Source: a virus (Duplodnaviria; Heunggongvirae; Uroviricota; Caudoviricetes). From it: a stretch of 43,730 bases of DNA. The DNA lies in the IMG/VR virus record IMGVR_UViG_646311924_000020; one strand, written 5' to 3'. The notes under the pieces were generated by a model that was given only the letters and a program-made list of their open reading frames with translations, had not been told where the DNA came from and did not search any database. Of the stretch, positions 27,875 through 41,437 are shown one piece after another. Every line of letters begins with the position of its first letter. The stretch's first letter is position 1. A program made the translations under genes and the position numbers.

Positions 27875-27950
27875 TGGTGCTGGTTAACGGACTTGAACCG
27901 CTACCCATTCGCTTACAAGGCGACTGCTCTACCATTGGAGCTAAACCAGC
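27875..27950 (-). tRNA. tRNA-Thr (anticodon UGU)
   Basis: 76 nt cloverleaf folded by hand: acceptor GCTGGTT/AACCAGC, D-arm GCTC/GAGC, anticodon loop CTTGTAA, T-arm with TTCAAGT loop, discriminator A, encoded CCA. Confidence 0.75.
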
Positions 27951-27955
27951 ATATT

Positions 27956-28030
27956 TGGCGGGACAGCGTGGACTCGAACCACGATAAGAAGGTTAACAGC
28001 CTTCCGTAATGACCTTTATACGACTGACCC
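27956..28030 (-). tRNA. tRNA-Asn-like (anticodon GUU), non-canonical, possibly pseudo-tRNA
   Basis: 75 nt: anticodon stem GAAGG/CCTTC with loop CTGTTAA, T-arm CGTGG-TTCGAGT-CCACG, encoded CCA; but acceptor stem has a T-T mismatch and the D-stem is only 3 bp. Confidence 0.55.
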
Positions 28031-29274: not shown

Positions 29275-29458
29275 CTCTTTCACTCCATCCGCGATGAACC
29301 ATGAGAACGTCGTTGACGATGGCGTGCATTTTCCCGTCTTTATCATCAACGTATTTTCTGACCGTACCGCGACTACATTTCAGTCTGCGTGCTACTTCTG
29401 TCTGGTTTCCGTATGCTTCAACGAGCATGTCTGGAATGGTTTTTACTGAGAACGTCAT
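29252..29458 (-). CDS. ninH: NinH
   Basis: 68 aa [68 protein letters not shown], matches recalled lambda NinH. Confidence 0.9.
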
Positions 29459-30057
29459 GCGGCCTCACTTCTGCTATTTCGCAGGTCTTTGAGTTTCTGT
29501 TGGTACTCTGCCTTGATCGCCTTGCACTCTTCGACAGTCCAGCGATGGCGGCTATGGTTTGATTCGATTTCGTCTACTGCTTCCTGCCCGATGCGGTTAA
29601 TCAGTTCGACGCGATACGGAACGAGATTTCCGCTTTTGTGCTGGTTGCACACCACGCATTGCTTGTGAATATTGCGTTCATCAAATCGGAGTTGAGGTGC
29701 CGCAGCAGTTGTCCGGTAATGTCCGGCATCCCACTGAGCAGACGTGAGCGTTCCGCACGAGATACATGGTAAGTCGCGGTCTCTTTCTCTGATGAAGGCG
29801 TTTACGGCTTGTTGGGCTTGTTTAATCCAGTAACTGCGGGGCTTTAAGGCGAGTTTTCGAATCTTAAGTTTATCTTTCTGTTTCTGCTCCTCTCGTCGTC
29901 GTTTCTTCTCTGCTGCTTTTTCCGCTTTTTCGCGTTCTTTGCTTCGTCGTTCGAGTGCTATCTTGGTTCCACAAATCTCATTACACCAATATTGATTTTG
30001 ATATTTTGGTATAAACCATTCATTGCAACATTTACATTTCCTTCGATAGATTCGCAT
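29455..30057 (-). CDS. ninG: NinG (Rap-like recombination protein)
   Basis: From ATG 30057 ([15 protein letters not shown]...) the product matches recalled lambda NinG over most of its length ([18 protein letters not shown]...[20 protein letters not shown]...[10 protein letters not shown]...); the N-terminal ~30 codons are AT-rich and diverged. Confidence 0.85.
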
Positions 30058-30598
30058 AAGTGCTCCTTTCGTTGCCGGAAAAATCACCGTAATACTTATC
30101 TCGGGCTTCTTCAGCAACTAGTACCGCTAACTCCAGATCATCAAAGCATCCGAAGTGTTTACTCTTGCCATGGAATCCTAGCCTAACATTCCATTTTTTC
30201 TGTCGTTTGTGCCAAGTAACCCCTCTGCAACCTGATTTGCTATTCTTTCGGATCCTTATATTTCTTGAATTTTCTATTGGCAGGCATTCTCTTAAATTTT
30301 CTGGCCTATTGTCGGTCCTAATTCCATTAACGTGGTCAATTTGACCAGCAGGCCAACGATTATGAGTTATGTAAAAAACTAAGACGTGAGTTTTATATCT
30401 ACGCCCATCTATCATGATCATTGAATAACCGTTGGAATCAAAAGTTCCAGCAACACTATTTAATGCTATCCTTCCCTGAGTGGGAACTTTCCATCTAAAT
30501 ACCCCGGTAGATTTATCGAAACTTAGTAACTCAAATATCCTTTTAACAGTTAAATCTTCTCTTTTACGGTTACATCGTCTTCGCGCTGGTTTAGCCAT
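30032..30598 (-). CDS. HNH homing endonuclease with AP2-type DNA-binding domain
   Basis: 188 aa; HNH core ([33 protein letters not shown]) followed by AP2-like segment ([24 protein letters not shown]); AT-rich; overlaps the ninG start by 26 nt and begins MAKPARRRC. Confidence 0.8.
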
Positions 30599-30761
30599 CG
30601 TCTTCTTCCTCGTACATTGAGCTATTCGGATCGCTCATCAGTTCTGCGCAGCAATCGGAGCACACGTGAACTTCCAGCACATGCAGCTTCTGACCGCAGT
30701 TAGCGCACGTTAAAGCTCGCTCGACGCTTTCTTGTTCGTAACTTCGATTTGGGTCAATCAC
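30591..30761 (-). CDS. ninF: NinF
   Basis: C-terminal [46 protein letters not shown] matches recalled lambda NinF; start placed at GTG 30761 (GTGA overlap with ninE stop) for a 56 aa product. Confidence 0.7.
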
Positions 30762-35401: not shown

Positions 35402-35572
35402 GACCTTTCTCCTTCTGCATCAGCTTCACTTTTTCCAACTCAGCCCGGAATCGACCAGGCTGCTTGAAGCTGGACAGGAAGCGATCACGTAGTATGTGTT
35501 TGTGAATTTTGTCCTGGTAAGGACTGAGTTGTTTTGTCATAATTACTCCTGTGGATTGATCCAGTAATTCCC

Positions 35573-35869
35573 TCAGAATTGCATATCAATTTGCTTAAAA
35601 TCCTCGGTGGCAGCCGGGGATTTTTTCTTTGTGATTTCATCAAGCGCATACTTAAAAGCCCTGCTAATCGGACTGATGTCTGATGCCATTCCGAAAGCAC
35701 ACAAGACCGAAGCAATAAATCTCCAGTCCGTTCTGCTTATCTTCGATTCATGACAGCCAATCATCTTTGCCAGACCGCGCTGGGTAAGCGTTGACAGGTT
35801 GATGAGTAAATCTGTTTCTGCGCGATCAACGTCGCGCTGTGATAGTTTGCTGTAACTTGTTTGTTCCAT
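35573..35869 (-). CDS. cII: CII-like transcriptional activator
   Basis: 98 aa; C-terminal [18 protein letters not shown] parallels lambda CII KKRPAATERSEQIQMEF; HTH-like segment ([15 protein letters not shown]); position downstream of cro. Confidence 0.75.
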
Positions 35870-35954
35870 TTCTTAAGATTTCCAGTAGTGAATAGTTAGT
35901 TGAAAGGTATGCGTGGAAACGCATATGGCCTTAGTTGGTCAGATATCTTGGAAC

Positions 35955-36000
35955 TCGCTTTTCAGCGACGTAGGACGAATGTCCGTTGTTACAAAGAGCG
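35955..36000 (-). promoter_or_regulatory. candidate nutR (boxA plus boxB)
   Basis: Minus strand just after cro: CGCUCUUUGUAACAACG (boxA-like), a small hairpin GGAC-AUUC-GUCC, then UCGC-UGAAAA-GCGA (GAAAA loop as in lambda boxB). Nearly the same arrangement recurs upstream of N. Confidence 0.5.
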
Positions 36001-36010
36001 GATCCGCTTA

Positions 36011-36226
36011 TTAAGCGGCTTTGTGTTCCGGCGGGAACACGTCATCAAGACTGACTTTTGCGCCTAACTTGTTTAGGCACGCAACAAGAGCACGGCATGT
36101 TTTAAGGTCTGGGAAGCGACGACCAGATTCCCAATGTCCGATAGCTCCCTGTGTGCATCCAACTGCCTTAGCAAGTGTTGTTTGAGAGATATTCAGTGAC
36201 TCTCGATATTTTCGTAGGTTGCTCAT
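36011..36226 (-). CDS. cro: Cro-like repressor (HTH_XRE)
   Basis: 71 aa from ATG 36226 (MSNLRKYRESLNISQTTLAKAVGCTQGAIGHWESGRR...), GGAGGG RBS, divergent from cI. Confidence 0.8.
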   Translation of the reverse strand: MSNLRKYRESLNISQTTLAKAVGCTQGAIGHWESGRRFPDLKTCRALVACLNKLGAKVSLDDVFPPEHKAA

Positions 36227-36252
36227 ATGCCCTCCATAGTAACCATAACGCA

Positions 36253-36281
36253 ATAATACGATATGTACTTTTAGAATGCAA
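36253..36281 (-). promoter_or_regulatory. candidate pR promoter (-35 TTGCAT, 17 bp spacer, -10 TATTAT)
   Basis: On minus strand upstream of cro; spacer and -10 overlap the 15-mer AGTACATATCGTATT, an operator-like motif also present at pL. Confidence 0.45.
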
Positions 36282-36343
36282 ACAAAAAATACATCTTGTG
36301 CATGGATGATTTTAGTACAGAGCGTAATAATAAGGGTATGAAA

Positions 36344-36997
36344 ATGAAATGGTATGAACTGGCTAGATCCAGAATGAAAGAGCTCGGCATAACTCAAGAG
36401 AAGTTAGCCGAAGAGCTTGGTATGACGCAGGGTGGAATTGGTCACTGGTTGCGCGGATCTCGTCATCCATCTCTTGACGAGATTGGTGTGGTGTTTAAAT
36501 ACCTTGGTATTGATAACGTCTCATTCAACCACGACGGTACATTTTCACCTGTTGGCGAATACTCATCTGCCCCCGTTAAAAAACAATATGAGTACCCTGT
36601 TTTTTCTCATGTTCAGGCCGGTATGTTCTCGCCTGAGCTTAGAACCTTTACCAAAGGTGATGCGGAGAGATGGGTCAGCACAACCAAAAAAGCCAGTGAT
36701 TGTGCGTTTTGGCTTGAAGTTGAAGGTAATTCCATGACCGCGCCAACAGGATCCAAGCCAAGCTTTCCTGACGGGATGTTAATTCTCGTTGACCCTGAGC
36801 AGGCTGTTGAGCCAGGTGATTTCTGCATAGCCAGACTTGGTGGTGACGAGTTTACCTTCAAGAAACTGATCAGGGATAGCGGTCAGGTGTTCCTACAACC
36901 ACTAAACCCGCAATATCCAATGATTCCATGCAATGATAGCTGTTCCGTAGTAGGGAAAGTTATCGCCAGCCAGTGGCCTGAAGAGACATTTAGTTAA
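36344..36997 (+). CDS. cI: CI-type prophage repressor (N-terminal HTH, C-terminal S24 LexA-like domain)
   Basis: HTH segment ([23 protein letters not shown]) and S24 motifs (GNSMTAP...FKKL); start chosen at ATG 36344 (7 nt after AAGGG); ORF-track start 36296 is a TTG. Confidence 0.85.
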
Positions 36998-37029
36998 CAG
37001 CCTCACCACTCTAAAACACACAACAATAA

Positions 37030-37057
37030 CCCGACCTTAGCGTCGGGTTTTCTTTTT
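37030..37057 (+). terminator. intrinsic terminator after cI
   Basis: Hairpin CCCGAC-CTTAGC-GTCGGG followed by TTTTCTTTTT, 33 nt after the cI stop. Confidence 0.6.
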
Positions 37058-37123
37058 CCAAAATATAAACCCATTAAATACAAAGCGTTATAAAAAACTA
37101 AACCATATTTAGAACATTTTGTA

Positions 37124-37152
37124 TTGACTCAGTAAAGTACACATCGTACTAT
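37124..37152 (+). promoter_or_regulatory. candidate pL promoter (-35 TTGACT, 17 bp spacer, -10 TACTAT) with overlapping operator-like 15-mer
   Basis: Spacer and -10 contain AGTACACATCGTACT (37136-37150), an inverted-repeat-containing 15-mer near-identical to the one at pR. Confidence 0.5.
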
Positions 37153-37198
37153 TTAGCTATCAGCAGGAAGCTGGAAGCCAAACGGAACAGACTGGCAG

Positions 37199-37244
37199 GC
37201 TCTTTAAACAACGTCGAACACTCGACTACGTGGCTGAAAAGCCA
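37199..37244 (+). promoter_or_regulatory. candidate nutL (boxA plus boxB)
   Basis: GCTCTTTAAACAACG (boxA-like), small hairpin GTCGA-ACAC-TCGAC, then TGGC-TGAAAA-GCCA (GAAAA loop); located between pL and N. Confidence 0.5.
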
Positions 37245-37342
37245 GATCACCCAACCACATAAGCTGTGGGATGCAATGCCGAAGCAACCGTCTCAGGAGG
37301 GGCTTCGAGATTGCATCGCCAAAGTTTATTCGGGAGGAATCT

Positions 37343-37615
37343 ATGTCCAGAAAAACAGAATTTAAAGGAACCGCAGCTTCTCGCCGTAGAGCTCGTCGTG
37401 CAAATCTGCAAAGTCAGGAGGCGATCAGCTCCGACAAGCTACACAGGCCAACCCCTTCACGAGTGGTCTTGCAATGCAAGCGCAAACCAGCAATGAGAGC
37501 AGAAGTGATAACTCTGACAACGTTGACCAGAAAATATGAAGGTTCAACTTGTCTTCCGAACGTAGCCATTTACGCGGCAGGCTACCGGAAATCAAAACAA
37601 CTGACGGCGAGATGA
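37343..37615 (+). CDS. N: N-type antitermination protein (arginine-rich motif)
   Basis: 90 aa from ATG 37343 (GGGAGG RBS): MSRKTEFKGTAASRRRARRANLQSQEA...; first gene after pL and the nut-like site. Confidence 0.7.
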   Translation: MSRKTEFKGTAASRRRARRANLQSQEAISSDKLHRPTPSRVVLQCKRKPAMRAEVITLTTLTRKYEGSTCLPNVAIYAAGYRKSKQLTAR

Positions 37616-37743
37616 CTTGTGTTGGTCGCCAGAAAATGAAATTAGGCAGCAAACCACTTATTTGAGGTGAGATATGGAAGAAGAATTTGAAGAGTTCGAA
37701 GAGCATCCGCAGGATGTGATGGAACAATACCAGGACTATCCGT

Positions 37744-37944
37744 ATGACTACGACTACTGATAAAAATCAATGGTGTGGACAATTCAAGCGATGCAATGGA
37801 TGCAAGCTGCAATCGGAATGCATGGTTAAGCCTGAAGAAATGTTTCCTGTAATGGAAGATGGGAAATATGTCGATAAATGGGCAATACGAACGACGGCAA
37901 TGATTGCCAGAGAACTTGGTAAACTGAACAACAAGGCTGCCTGA
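37744..37944 (+). CDS. ral: Ral (restriction alleviation protein)
   Basis: 66 aa MTTTTDKNQWCGQFKRCNGCKLQSECMVKPEEMFPVMEDGKYVDKWAIRTTAMIARELGKLNNKAA, matches recalled lambda Ral. Confidence 0.85.
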   Translation: MTTTTDKNQWCGQFKRCNGCKLQSECMVKPEEMFPVMEDGKYVDKWAIRTTAMIARELGKLNNKAA

Positions 37945-37962
37945 TGGCGGCCTTTATTTTTG
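37935..37962 (+). terminator. intrinsic terminator overlapping 3' end of ral
   Basis: Hairpin GGCTGCC-TGAT-GGCGGCC (one G-U pair) followed by TTTATTTTTGG. Confidence 0.5.
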
Positions 37963-38009
37963 GCATAAACAACAGAATAAACACAGCACTGAATTATTTG
38001 AGGTGAGAT

Positions 38010-38480
38010 ATGACAAAATCATGGAGCGTACCTTTTCCTGAATCAGAAACTGAACATGATGGAATGCCTGTTTTCTGGAGATTCCAAGCGACAGTTGAAG
38101 AAGATGGAATCAAAATATTCGCACTTCAATATATAGCTTTTCATCAGACAGATCATTATGCATGGTTGGTTCCTGCGCATTGGATTGTTAATTTTAAACC
38201 AGCACCAAATCAGTGGTTACAGGAATGGAAACAAAGGAGAAATAGATATGCAATTAAGAAAGTAGCAAAAAATGCCGAAAGATCTTTTGCATTCCCGACG
38301 AAGAAACTTGCCATTGAAAGTTTATTGCGCCGGAAGAAGTACCATTTAATGAGAATCAAACAAGATTTGGCTGTTGTATCAACTCTTGTTGATGGGATGA
38401 AGAATATTGATACATCAATACCAGATATTGAATATAACTTTGGACACAACCAAGAAACAGAAAATTGGGTGTTTTATTAG
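38010..38480 (+). CDS. hypothetical protein (156 aa), accessory gene between ral and cIII
   Basis: AT-rich ORF with strong RBS GAGGTGAGATATG, no predicted membrane segment; no family recognised. Position corresponds to P22 gene 17 / lambda sieB locus. Confidence 0.55.
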   Translation: MTKSWSVPFPESETEHDGMPVFWRFQATVEEDGIKIFALQYIAFHQTDHYAWLVPAHWIVNFKPAPNQWLQEWKQRRNRYAIKKVAKNAERSFAFPTKKLAIESLLRRKKYHLMRIKQDLAVVSTLVDGMKNIDTSIPDIEYNFGHNQETENWVFY

Positions 38481-38584
38481 TACGAATAAGCACTGTGTAT
38501 TCATTCCAACGAGTGAATACACGGAGCAATGTCGCTCGTAACTAAACAGGAGCCGACTTGTTCTGATTATTGGAAATCTTCTTT

Positions 38585-38610
38585 GCCCTCCAGTGTGAGG
38601 GCCTTTTTAT
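38585..38610 (+). terminator. intrinsic terminator after the 156 aa gene
   Basis: Hairpin GCCCTC-CAGTGT-GAGGGC followed by CTTTTTAT. Confidence 0.65.
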
Positions 38611-38674
38611 ATGCATACCAATAACGCTTCACTCGAGGCGTTTTCGTTATGCAATCAAACAGAAGGAGCATCCT

Positions 38675-38845
38675 ATGCAACAGTTCGCTATTGCAGGGGC
38701 GGCATCGGTTCGCCCTTTCAACCCGATTTTATCGGTACAGCATTCACGAAAAAATATTTTAACCGGAGCAGACTTTAAACAACCAAGAATGAAAAGCTTG
38801 CTCGAAAAGCTTTGGGATATTTTGAAACAACAAGGCCGCCCATGA
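38675..38845 (+). CDS. cIII: CIII-like protein (FtsH inhibitor)
   Basis: 56 aa from ATG 38675 (AAGGAG RBS): MQQFAIAGAASVRPFNPILSVQHSRKNILTGADFKQPRMKSLLEKLWDILKQQGRP; N-terminal MQ-AIAG and central amphipathic LLEKLWDIL resemble lambda CIII. Confidence 0.7.
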   Translation: MQQFAIAGAASVRPFNPILSVQHSRKNILTGADFKQPRMKSLLEKLWDILKQQGRP

Positions 38846-39012
38846 GTTTTACAGATAACTGGTCAGACGAAGAATTCATTCGTCAGATGAAAGAATTAAT
38901 CGGTAACGAAGGAGATATTCATGTCACTTGCAACCACCGTGAAGGAGAGCAAGTTACAGAGACGCATGTACACGCAGCAGGCGTTAATGTATCGCCAGAA
39001 GGGAGATCGTGA
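38842..39012 (+). CDS. hypothetical protein (56 aa), kil position
   Basis: ATG overlaps the cIII stop (ATGA); small acidic protein; function by position only. Confidence 0.4.
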   Translation: MSFTDNWSDEEFIRQMKELIGNEGDIHVTCNHREGEQVTETHVHAAGVNVSPEGRS

Positions 39013-39101
39013 AGGTGTTCGCGTATTTTTAAATGCGGCAAAGACTGAAGTATTAAATCAGCGTTATTTCCTTGGGCCATGTCCATTCTGAGAACAATCA
39101 T

Positions 39102-39707
39102 ATGAGCAAAGAATTTTACGCAAGACTGGCAGCTATTCAGGAAAATCTGAACGCGCCCAAGAATCAGTACAACTCATTCGGTAAATATAAATACAGAAGC
39201 TGCGAAGACATTCTTGAAGGCGTTAAGCCGTTACTGAATGGTCTGTTTTTATCAATCAGCGATGAAGTTGTGTTGATTGGTAATCGGTATTACGTGAAAG
39301 CCACGGCAACTATTACCGATGGCGAAAACAGTCATACGGCAACCGCTCTTGCACGAGAGGAAGAAAGCAAGAAAGGAATGGATTCTGCACAAGTTACGGG
39401 AGCTACAAGCTCTTATGCACGCAAGTATTGCCTCAATGGTTTGTTCGGCATTGATGATGCGAAAGATGCAGATACAGACGAGCATAAACATCAGCAGAAC
39501 GCAGCAGCAAAGCAATCAAAACCATCACCTACACCTGAACAGGTTCTAAAAGCATTCACTGACGCAGCATTGCAGAAAAACACCGTAGAAGAGCTTAAAC
39601 AGGCGTTCGCCAAAGCGTGGAAGATGCTCGAAGGCACACCGGAGCAGCACAAAGCGCAGGACGTTTACAACATCAGACGAGACGAATTAGAAGGAGCGGC
39701 TGCTTAA
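39102..39707 (+). CDS. erf: Erf (essential recombination function, single-strand annealing protein)
   Basis: From ATG 39102: MSKEFYARLAAIQENLNAPKNQYNSFGKYKYRSCEDILEGVKPLLNGLFLSISDEVVLIGNRYYVKATATITDGENSH..., matches recalled P22 Erf. Confidence 0.95.
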   Translation: MSKEFYARLAAIQENLNAPKNQYNSFGKYKYRSCEDILEGVKPLLNGLFLSISDEVVLIGNRYYVKATATITDGENSHTATALAREEESKKGMDSAQVTGATSSYARKYCLNGLFGIDDAKDADTDEHKHQQNAAAKQSKPSPTPEQVLKAFTDAALQKNTVEELKQAFAKAWKMLEGTPEQHKAQDVYNIRRDELEGAAA

Positions 39708-40090
39708 TGGCACATTCGATTACTGTAAGACTAAACAAGCCCGCAAGAGAGTTTCAGGCCGGGGAAAATATCGGATTCAACATCCGTGCTGGCGTTCAGT
39801 ATTACGATCGCCAGACAAAAAAGAAAGAATGGACAAACTACAACGCCGTTGTATTTGCCAAGCCGGGAGCGCAAGCGGATTACTACCGTAGTGTTCTTGT
39901 TGAAGGTGGCATTGTAGAAATTACCGGAGAAAACATCAGGGTTGATGTTTATCAGGGGCAAAATGGTCAATCAATCACTCTTGAATTACTGAATGCAAAG
40001 ATTGGATTTGCAGCTTCAGGAAATGGCCCGCAGCAGCAAAGTAGTAACCAGCAGAACACCCCTGTATACGACGATTCCATCCCATTCTGA
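39707..40090 (+). CDS. hypothetical protein (127 aa), immediately downstream of erf
   Basis: ATG overlaps erf stop (TAATG); MAHSITVRLNKPAREFQAGENIGFNIRAGVQYYDRQTKKKEWTNYNAVVFAKPG...; function unknown. Confidence 0.55.
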   Translation: MAHSITVRLNKPAREFQAGENIGFNIRAGVQYYDRQTKKKEWTNYNAVVFAKPGAQADYYRSVLVEGGIVEITGENIRVDVYQGQNGQSITLELLNAKIGFAASGNGPQQQSSNQQNTPVYDDSIPF

Positions 40091-40113
40091 TTTAGAAAAA
40101 TAAGGATTTAATT

Positions 40114-40407
40114 ATGCCAGCGCCTCTGTATGGTGCGGATGACCCGCGCCGCTGTTCCGGCAATTCCGTATCGGAGGTGCTGGATAAATTCAGGAAAAAT
40201 TACGACCGGATAATGTCGCTACCGCAGGAAACAAAAGAGGAAAAGGAATTTCGCCACTGCGTATGGCTTGCAGAGAAAGAAGAACGCGAGCGAATTTACC
40301 AGACATCAATCCGACCATTCCGCAAAGCCACATATACCCACTTCCCTGAAATTGACCCGCGCCTGCGTAATTACCGCTCACGCTATGGCGCTATCAGTAA
40401 TAACTGA
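40114..40407 (+). CDS. possible Abc2-like anti-RecBCD protein (97 aa)
   Basis: Size and position (second gene after erf) fit P22 abc2; I cannot verify sequence identity from memory. Confidence 0.4.
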
Positions 40408-40417
40408 GGAATTTACC

Positions 40418-40585
40418 ATGAGAGGACTTGCATACAATCCCAGCATTCTTCCGGCAGAAATGATTATTCGCCAGCGCGTAAAGCCAATGCCATCGAGAGA
40501 GGAATTACTTAAGAGAAATTCTTTTCCGTCAGTAAATCAAAACAAATATCTGAATGCGATGTTGCGTAAAGGAGGCAAGCAGTGA
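40418..40585 (+). CDS. hypothetical protein (55 aa)
   Basis: ATG 40418 after GAGGA; operon-strand small ORF. Confidence 0.35.
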
Positions 40586-40881
40586 GTGTATGTCTTATTG
40601 ATAAACGTCGACGTGGGCAACAAATACCATCTGTTGAAATGCCGAATCACACATGGTTTTGCGTACTTGATATCGATGGTATGGATACGTTGGTTGACAC
40701 TCGTCATTACTGCGATACCGCAACAGCTACTCCGGCGAAAGCAAAGAAAATTGCTGCTCTGATAGAAAACTGGACTCCACCTGATGGTTGGTGCAATGGG
40801 AATGATCGAGATTGGCATGAAAAAATGAAGGGCTATATCTGCGATTTCTTACGTAAATGCAACGGATTCAGGGTGATGTGA
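40582..40881 (+). CDS. hypothetical protein (99 aa)
   Basis: GTG start overlapping previous stop; Cys/Trp-containing small protein. Confidence 0.45.
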
Positions 40882-40882
40882 C

Positions 40883-41437
40883 ATGAACAAGATTGACTAT
40901 CAGGCACTGCGTGCCAAGGCAGAAAAAGCAACGTGTGGTGAGTGGTCGCTCGAATATGGAGAGGAGAGATTTGATGCTGGTGATGCGCTAATTCATCGTG
41001 AAGTTGTTGGATATCTTCCCATTTGCAGAATTGAAGGAGCGCATCCTGAAAGCGGTTTCGATGAAGATTTCCAGATGGAACAGCAGGCCAATGCTGAATT
41101 TATTGCTGCCTTTAATCCAAAGGTTGCTTTGGCACTGCTGGATGAACGGGAAAGAAACCAGCAATACATCAAACGCCGCGACCAGGAGAACGAGGATATT
41201 GCGCTAACGGTAGGGAAGCTGCGCGTTGAGCTTGAAGCAGAAAAACAGCGGGCAAAAGTTCTATTTATGGAAAATGCTCGGCTTAAGTCAGGCATAGCCG
41301 GTCTGATACACCTCGGTATTCGATATGCAGATGTTGAGGTCATGAAAATTGCTGGAGATGCCCAGCTTTCTACCCCATGCACTGACAGCATCATAAACAG
41401 CATTGCAACAGGCATTCGCATCAAAGGAGGTGAGTAA
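40883..41437 (+). CDS. hypothetical coiled-coil protein, possibly Ead/Ea22-like
   Basis: 184 aa with central coiled-coil (RRDQENEDIALTVGKLRVELEAEKQRAKVLFMENARLK); resembles Ead/Ea22-like prophage proteins by memory only. Confidence 0.45.
   Translation: MNKIDYQALRAKAEKATCGEWSLEYGEERFDAGDALIHREVVGYLPICRIEGAHPESGFDEDFQMEQQANAEFIAAFNPKVALALLDERERNQQYIKRRDQENEDIALTVGKLRVELEAEKQRAKVLFMENARLKSGIAGLIHLGIRYADVEVMKIAGDAQLSTPCTDSIINSIATGIRIKGGE

Follow-up and report, generated by a model that had tools for sequence, protein, structure and literature searches.

A putative mobile homing-endonuclease cassette with a borrowed start codon in the 5' end of lambda-type ninG

The stretch of viral DNA analyzed here (IMG/VR record IMGVR_UViG_646311924_000020; 43,730 nt, referred to as the window) is a P22-like prophage adjoining sbcB, and the 5' end of its lambda-type ninG gene is occupied by a 596-nt block (29974..30569, minus strand) that is, on balance, probably a mobile homing-endonuclease cassette. 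The block, delimited by three-way alignment and by a contrast in sequence diversity, contains codons 10-188 of a 188-aa endonuclease open reading frame (ORF; hereafter HEG, 30032..30598, minus strand), as well as 28 recoded ninG codons equipped with a new ATG and a new ribosome-binding site, and it replaces some 67 nt (nt 30 to ~96) of HEG-free ninG. As far as sequence can tell, the outcome is an unusual architecture, in which a borrowed start codon is combined with a recoded replacement of the 5' end of the target gene. The RefSeq annotation of the locus lists simply an 'HNH endonuclease' and a 'recombination protein NinG'.

The left junction of the cassette lies within the start of ninG. The lambda NinG protein (RefSeq) begins (M)MAKPARRRC and the endonuclease begins MAKPARRRC, and a three-way DNA alignment reveals that the window and lambda are co-linear through ninE, ninF and the first 29 nt of ninG. 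Counted from the ATG, lambda and the window do not differ at any of these 29 nt (ATGGCTAAACCAGCGCGAAGACGATGTAA), and the 3' end of ninF immediately upstream is homologous as well; judged from this alignment, the shared start reflects homology and not a chance match. After nt 29, lambda proceeds AAACGATGAATGCCGG and the window proceeds CCGTAAAAGAGAAG into the endonuclease. HEG-free E. coli alleles with a perfect match to the 3' end of the window ninF cease to be homologous at the very same base (query positions 1-81), and the captured 29-nt start (30570..30598, minus strand), which now opens the HEG ORF, is near-invariant, with a single singleton among 50 HEG-bearing (HEG+) loci. The upstream gene, ninF (30591..30761, minus strand), is identified by its Pfam NinF match (1e-13), by the PGAP annotation of a near-identical locus in the prophage of bovine E. 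coli E2863, and by the lambda layout. Its stop codon overlaps codons 2-3 of HEG, in the same arrangement as the ninF/ninG overlap of lambda.

Sixteen relatives of the endonuclease start between one and eight residues before a conserved LLxYDPxTGVFRWK block, at positions that correspond to HEG residues ~11-17, and the next in-frame ATG, GTG or TTG of HEG after its first codon is that of M61, a residue already within the conserved domain; the first 11 residues are also of low confidence in the structural model described below. Hence, HEG has no start codon of its own and, by its sequence, is read from the ninG ATG by means of the ninG ribosome-binding site and the ninF stop/start overlap. A NinG-derived N-terminus is present in none of the relatives. 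Likewise, no promoter or terminator belonging to HEG was detected on the coding strand, nor any promoter able to act there in the lysogen, and HEG is therefore probably expressed with the delayed-early nin transcript, at a time when phage genomes replicate and recombine. Some HEG+ loci have a sequence other than ninF upstream, and in that context the frame is open upstream of the ATG (e.g. phage AU6Stx1, locus L002, 2479-3084), so that some annotations call an endonuclease of 201-215 aa with a GTG or other start.

At the opposite end, HEG and the restored ninG gene overlap by 26 nt (30032-30057) in different frames. The restored gene (rap; hereafter ninG') is full-length (200 aa; 29455..30057, minus strand), and its product matches Pfam NinG (PF05766) with an E-value of 2.7e-85 over profile positions 5-192 of 193. 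A Shine-Dalgarno sequence, AAGGAG, can be read inside the 3' end of HEG (30063..30068, minus strand) and is followed, after 5 nt, by the ninG' ATG (30057), all of it within the last ~35 nt of the HEG ORF. The 28 recoded codons that begin at this ATG (29974..30057, minus strand) are delimited by comparison with lambda and by their linkage to HEG. This 84-nt tract is a recoded version of lambda codons ~2-31, with 49% nucleotide identity and a two-codon indel; 13 of its 28 residues are identical to those of lambda. Within the N-terminal zinc ribbon, the motifs EWF, NQ and WC are retained and so are all four cysteines (C8, C10/C11, C25 and C29 of the tract align with C9, C14, C29 and C33 of lambda), and the cassette, as read from its sequence, thereby rebuilds a complete NinG with four N-terminal cysteines. 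The base composition of the locus changes along with its parts, with a GC content of 0.39 in the body of HEG, 0.286 in the recoded tract, 0.505 in the lambda equivalent of the tract and 0.50 in the ninG body. At TGTGGAACC, sequence 98-99% identical to lambda resumes and makes up the ninG body (29455..29973, minus strand), in which polymorphisms common to HEG-free alleles are encountered from 8 nt past the tract onwards.

It might be argued that the tract diverged in place, its 28 codons having mutated under selection to escape self-cleavage instead of being imported together with HEG. The preservation of the four cysteines and other key residues would agree with such a history. Yet the 51% nucleotide divergence, the two-codon indel and the fall in GC content from 0.50 to 0.29, together with the abrupt end of the tract beside lambda-like DNA and its invariance across loci, with no intermediates, make this scenario highly improbable.

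Most of the structural features of the locus had been anticipated in a preliminary description of this DNA. That description had proposed an AT-rich, 188-aa HNH/AP2 ORF beginning with MAKPARRRC, given there as the canonical N-terminus of NinG and taken to represent a captured ninG start; it had further described the 26-nt overlap with the present ninG start, and an AT-rich, diverged 5' end of ninG followed by lambda-like sequence. The domain match and base composition of HEG, the lambda protein, the starts of the relatives and the alignments reported here bear out all of these points, and it was the suggested comparison with lambda and HEG-free alleles that located the insertion.

The two versions of ninG codons R-R-(R/K)-C that result from this arrangement form an imperfect 14-nt direct repeat bracketing the cassette, both copies of which are apparent in the sequence. 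The left copy, CGAAGACGATGTAA, comprises ninG codons RRRC plus AA (30570..30583, minus strand), and the right copy, CGAAGGAAATGTAA, ninG' codons RRKC plus AA (30032..30045, minus strand). The TAA of the right copy is the stop codon of HEG, and fusing the ATGTAA of both copies would yield an in-frame hybrid ninG. The HEG reading frame is closed by this stop codon, ninG begins anew in a different frame from a Shine-Dalgarno sequence and ATG of its own, and no Rfam family matched at E<=1. On these grounds, an intron- or intein-encoded endonuclease was rejected.

The identification of HEG rests on domain searches and on its predicted structure. Its HNH_3 catalytic domain (PF13392; residues 68-107, 30278..30397, minus strand) scores 42.7 bits against a curated cut-off of 24.8 (E 4.2e-11), and in an alignment of HEG with its 16 relatives D88, H89, N101 and N110 are near-invariant and L102 and R103 invariant. 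The protein also matches PHROG 99 ('HNH endonuclease', 1.4e-71). The match to the AP2-type DNA-binding domain (PF00847; residues 123-171, 30086..30232, minus strand) reaches 22.2 bits (E 1.8e-4), which is below the cut-off of 33.3, and a sequence search of the PDB returned, for this domain, WRI1 alone, with an E-value of 0.19. An AlphaFold model built on 17 sequences has a pLDDT of 85 and is poorly defined in the first 11 and the last few residues. The best PDB match for the nuclease half of this model is the homing endonuclease I-HmuI (1u3e; probability 1.00, 99 columns, E 3.8e-3); its TM score of 0.34 is low because a single domain is aligned, and the His-Me finger fold is present in the model. 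The AP2 region is modelled as three strands (127-130, 135-142 and 145-152) and a helix (155-173), which superimpose on the plant AP2/ERF domain of AtERF1 (1gcc) with an rmsd of 1.3 A over 51 columns (TMt 0.67) and match WRI1 and TEM1 as well. Taken together, the Pfam, model and PDB matches argue that HEG is correctly described as an HNH-AP2 protein with a predicted nuclease activity.

All 16 relatives are at most 47% identical to HEG, and several of them carry precomputed PF00847 and PF13392 assignments. Homologues below 60% identity number in the thousands, in T5-like, T7-like and other phages, and are very common in virulent enterobacterial phages. None of the 5.8 billion proteins searched is a relative with an identity between 47% and 99%, and the protein cluster to which HEG belongs has 464 members, from E. 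coli and Salmonella enterica.

A survey of 5426 complete E. coli genomes located HEG with its junctions in 537 of them (~10%, at a coverage of at least 80%). The recoded tract is found in exactly 537 genomes, always with at least 99% identity, and tract and HEG are linked in every one. The same holds for all 52 IMG/VR contigs that encode the tract peptide and for all seven tract contigs from metagenomes, each of which carries HEG too. Partial-coverage matches to the tract were obtained in six E. coli genomes; these had been considered as potential HEG-free alleles, an option that was discarded on the one inspected, in which the match reflects an IS1203 insertion and HEG is still present. In E. 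coli 27_141091 (L003), IS1203 sits in codon 12 of the recoded ninG. Degenerate-codon DNA patterns did not detect the tract among GTDB species representatives. Among sequenced phages, the cassette is carried by the Stx1-converting phages AU6Stx1, where it lies ~1.7 kb upstream of stxA1, and SH2026Stx1, and HEG is absent from lambda, from P22 and from most of the 527 matching phage records. The treatment of HEG in the preliminary description as something other than a stable, conserved member of the nin region is in keeping with this distribution.

Wherever it is found, the cassette is at least 99% identical, and from its sequence it would seem to be a single, pre-formed and nearly invariant unit. 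This observation refines two further proposals of the preliminary description. The homing event postulated there survives as a polymorphic, mobile insert, but not as an event that took place in this prophage, given a pre-formed cassette that is the same everywhere. Similarly, the co-conversion of the ninG 5' end stands insofar as the tract is diverged, but not as a variable conversion tract, since the tract is never separated from HEG. Homing and co-conversion are hence best regarded as well-motivated inferences from the sequence data.

The case for movement comes from the comparison of the cassette with its surroundings. HEG+ loci present two upstream contexts, one with ninF and another in which non-ninF sequence joins 15 nt upstream of the ATG; the latter dominates in clonal Shiga toxin-producing E. 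coli (STEC). Across 17 HEG+ loci in the ninF context, the 596-nt cassette has a nucleotide diversity (pi) of 0.0028 and seven haplotypes, as compared with a pi of 0.02-0.08 and 15 haplotypes in the adjacent ninG body, and a pi of 0.155 and 12 haplotypes in the upstream 200 nt. Relative to its immediate flanks in these loci, the cassette has a diversity that is lower by a factor of 7-28. The ninG bodies of HEG+ loci are scattered among those of HEG-free alleles, which differ from each other by a mean of ~30 nt: over 560 nt, 35 of 50 have a HEG-free allele no more than four differences away, two are identical to one, and no site in the ninG body is fixed between the two classes. All four allele combinations are observed at the first polymorphic site 8 nt past the tract and also 3 nt upstream of the ATG. 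Every HEG+ locus has the same junctions, with HEG-free alleles homologous on either side, which amounts to a presence/absence polymorphism at one fixed site. A single genome (IMG 2690316149) contains the cassette twice, once in the non-ninF and once in the ninF context (L061 and L116), indicating that two prophages of one cell were both HEG+. Of 52 loci, 51 retain an intact HEG ORF and 47 an intact ninG'; the common polymorphisms in HEG are mostly synonymous, with eight synonymous and ten non-synonymous changes overall. The cassette occurs, moreover, in both E. coli and Salmonella. At the sequence level, such a pattern would be expected if a young element had been copied time and again into homologous backgrounds that are old and diverse, and the population data would fit homing, or at least recent horizontal spread, while being compatible too with ordinary lambdoid recombination.

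That last possibility leads to the view of the cassette as a passive mosaic module, which would have originated once by illegitimate recombination and spread by clonal descent and ordinary exchange among lambdoid phages, its endonuclease being inactive or directed to a target elsewhere. Several considerations lend weight to this view and count against a homing cassette. We infer the activity, cut site and target of the enzyme from sequence, and the nuclease activity that HEG would need is a prediction. Lambdoid phages recombine freely, and a neutral insertion with conserved flanks could reach many backgrounds. Much of the 537-genome count stems from clonal STEC (O157:H7, O145 and O111) that share a single, non-ninF upstream context, which inflates the figure. 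Homing need not be invoked either for the rearranged prophage of O157:H7 86-24. In addition, unrelated genes have been inserted at the ninF/ninG boundary as well, which is a hot spot for insertions in general. Finally, no donor ninG was found that has the recoded N-terminus without HEG, or with a diverged body, by tblastn in phages, by a word-indexed search of 5.8 billion proteins, by phmmer against 1.84 billion representatives, or at the DNA level with degenerate-codon patterns in IMG/VR, GTDB genomes and metagenomes; nothing above 60-68% identity to the tract turned up except cassette fragments, the nearest NinG N-terminus being 68% identical, and the nearest relative of HEG is 47% identical. 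On the other hand, the low diversity of the cassette relative to its flanks points to a recent spread across backgrounds and not to an old neutral insertion, the endonuclease has remained intact in nearly all loci with its catalytic residues conserved, and the putative target segment has been replaced and recoded, as would be expected of an immune homing allele. A purely passive module seems, on these data, a rather unlikely account, if one that deserves serious consideration.

Some of the loci just mentioned have peculiarities of their own. The rearranged prophage of O157:H7 86-24 (L246) lacks ninF upstream of the cassette and has a truncated IS30 at a distance of ~340 nt from it. Elsewhere in E. 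coli there are prophages whose ninG ATG is the exact starting point of another gene, encoding either a 130-aa hypothetical protein or a KilAC antirepressor; in E. coli A1.S1.18 (L118 1553-1945, the 130-aa gene), ninG restarts downstream with a normal MAKPARRRC.

If the cassette does home, its structure suggests a way in which it could do so. The enzyme would nick or cut ninG alleles without HEG, within or close to the ~67 nt that are replaced in HEG+ alleles, and the latter would be immune because this stretch is gone or recoded in them. A HEG+ copy would then serve as the repair template, with homology supplied on the left by ninF and the ninG start and on the right by the ninG body, and the block would be copied as a whole, because a tract with 49% identity offers no internal homology for a crossover. 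As to its origin, the simplest model would be that a free-standing HEG located just upstream of a diverged, AT-rich ninG in a donor invaded a lambda-type ninG. On the right, the junction would have been resolved by homology in the ninG body; on the left, HEG would have lost its original start to an illegitimate join, in frame, at ninG nt 29, which may have been the site of the break. Here we extend this idea to suggest, more tentatively and as something short of probable, that the cassette could be an active, self-contained, start-capturing homing element, dependent entirely on the translation start of its target and equipped with a recoded immunity copy of the target's 5' end, for which the left junction (ninG nt 29) would mark the original cut site and which would now be homing between co-resident or co-infecting lambdoid prophages, including Shiga-toxin phages. 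If true, this would provide a tractable lambda-based system for the study of intronless homing in temperate phages.

The location of HEG also bears on whether it might have been domesticated for a phage function, be it as the packaging HNH partner of terminase, as a recombination partner of NinG or as an exclusion or defence nuclease. HNH proteins take on several roles in phages (PMC12315714), and HEG adjoins a recombination gene. In the window, the gene order on the minus strand is ninB, a Dam-type methyltransferase gene, ninE, ninF, HEG, ninG, ninH, a Ser/Thr phosphatase gene, Q, tRNA-Asn, tRNA-Thr and the lysis genes. The HNH proteins that act in packaging with terminase have their genes next to those for terminase and portal (Kala et al. 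2014, cited in PMC12315714), whereas HEG resides in the nin region and precedes Q and the lysis genes, and a packaging role was rejected on this basis; in E2863, HEG is ~6 kb upstream of the gene for the terminase large subunit, with Q, the lysis genes and several others in between. Most relatives of the window phage do without HEG, no lysogen-active promoter was detected on its strand, and its nearest relatives in structure and sequence are homing endonucleases. A domesticated function of any of these kinds is consequently quite improbable.

The remainder of the window is near-identical to the E2863 prophage over most, but not all, of its length. The exception is the immunity and early-left region (~35565-41411), which is mostly non-homologous to the otherwise 99.9%-identical E2863 prophage and is a typical lambdoid mosaic replacement. 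The head-gene region contains two IS1203-like copies (15256-16572 and 18439-19749), of which E2863 has the first only. The second is thus an extra 1.3-kb insertion in the portal/scaffold region, and the window prophage is probably defective as a consequence. The two tRNA genes, tRNA-Thr (TGT; 27875-27950, minus strand) and tRNA-Asn (GTT; 27956-28030, minus strand), lie between Q and the holin gene. The preliminary description had also counted a second, independent HNH insertion in this prophage, and there is indeed a 177-aa homing-endonuclease-like gene (12658..13191, minus strand), unrelated to HEG and identified through its NUMOD4, HNH_3 and HTH domain matches. It is located between a gene-10-like head-completion gene and the tail-needle gene, which are adjacent in HK620, Sf6 and other relatives.

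Several known systems share part of this arrangement. The SegF, SegG and Mob-type HNH genes of T4 are reportedly free-standing and capable of intronless homing. The ninG cassette resembles them in that a small nuclease gene occupies a fixed site, between or within conserved genes, in some genomes and is missing from it in others; in addition, the putative target sequence beside it differs in the HEG+ allele, adjacent sequence is co-inherited and there is no intron or intein. Unlike them, the ninG HEG has no start of its own, is in frame with the first nine codons of its target and carries a recoded 5' duplicate; its hosts are temperate lambdoid prophages and not virulent T-even phages, and its homing activity is putative. 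The His-Me finger catalytic core of HEG is shared by I-HmuI (PDB 1u3e), an HNH homing endonuclease from Bacillus phage SPO1 that nicks DNA, but I-HmuI is encoded by a group I intron, has another C-terminal DNA-binding module and is 19% identical in sequence. HNH-AP2 endonucleases of phages and bacteria display the same two-domain layout, HNH_3 followed by AP2. In Aeromonas phage Aeh1, nrdA is reportedly split by mobE and yet works. There, as in the cassette, a free-standing endonuclease gene lies inside a coding sequence and the function of the host gene is preserved (as predicted for ninG'), but nrdA survives as two polypeptides and ninG as one, because the cassette supplies a replacement 5' end. 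In epsilon34, likewise a P22-like phage, gene 31 joins the N-terminus of the resident gene eaE in frame to an HNH homing endonuclease (PMC2629481), although the gene and the HNH lineage are different and no restored copy of the host gene has been described.

Full-text searches of the literature retrieved no description of the ninG cassette. HNH homing endonucleases are well known in virulent phages; to our knowledge, temperate lambdoid prophages offer fewer well-described examples that are clear and population-wide. For annotation purposes, the 'HNH endonuclease' and 'NinG' calls at this locus should be understood as one composite unit. Since the locus belongs to the best-studied phage system, that of lambda, the homing hypothesis is easily testable. 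The abundance of the cassette in STEC and in Stx1 phages makes it a ready marker of recombination among such prophages, and perhaps a driver of it. More generally, the cassette illustrates a route by which a selfish nuclease gene can come to lie in a coding sequence while the host gene stays intact: it takes over the start signals of that gene and supplies a recoded replacement for its 5' end.

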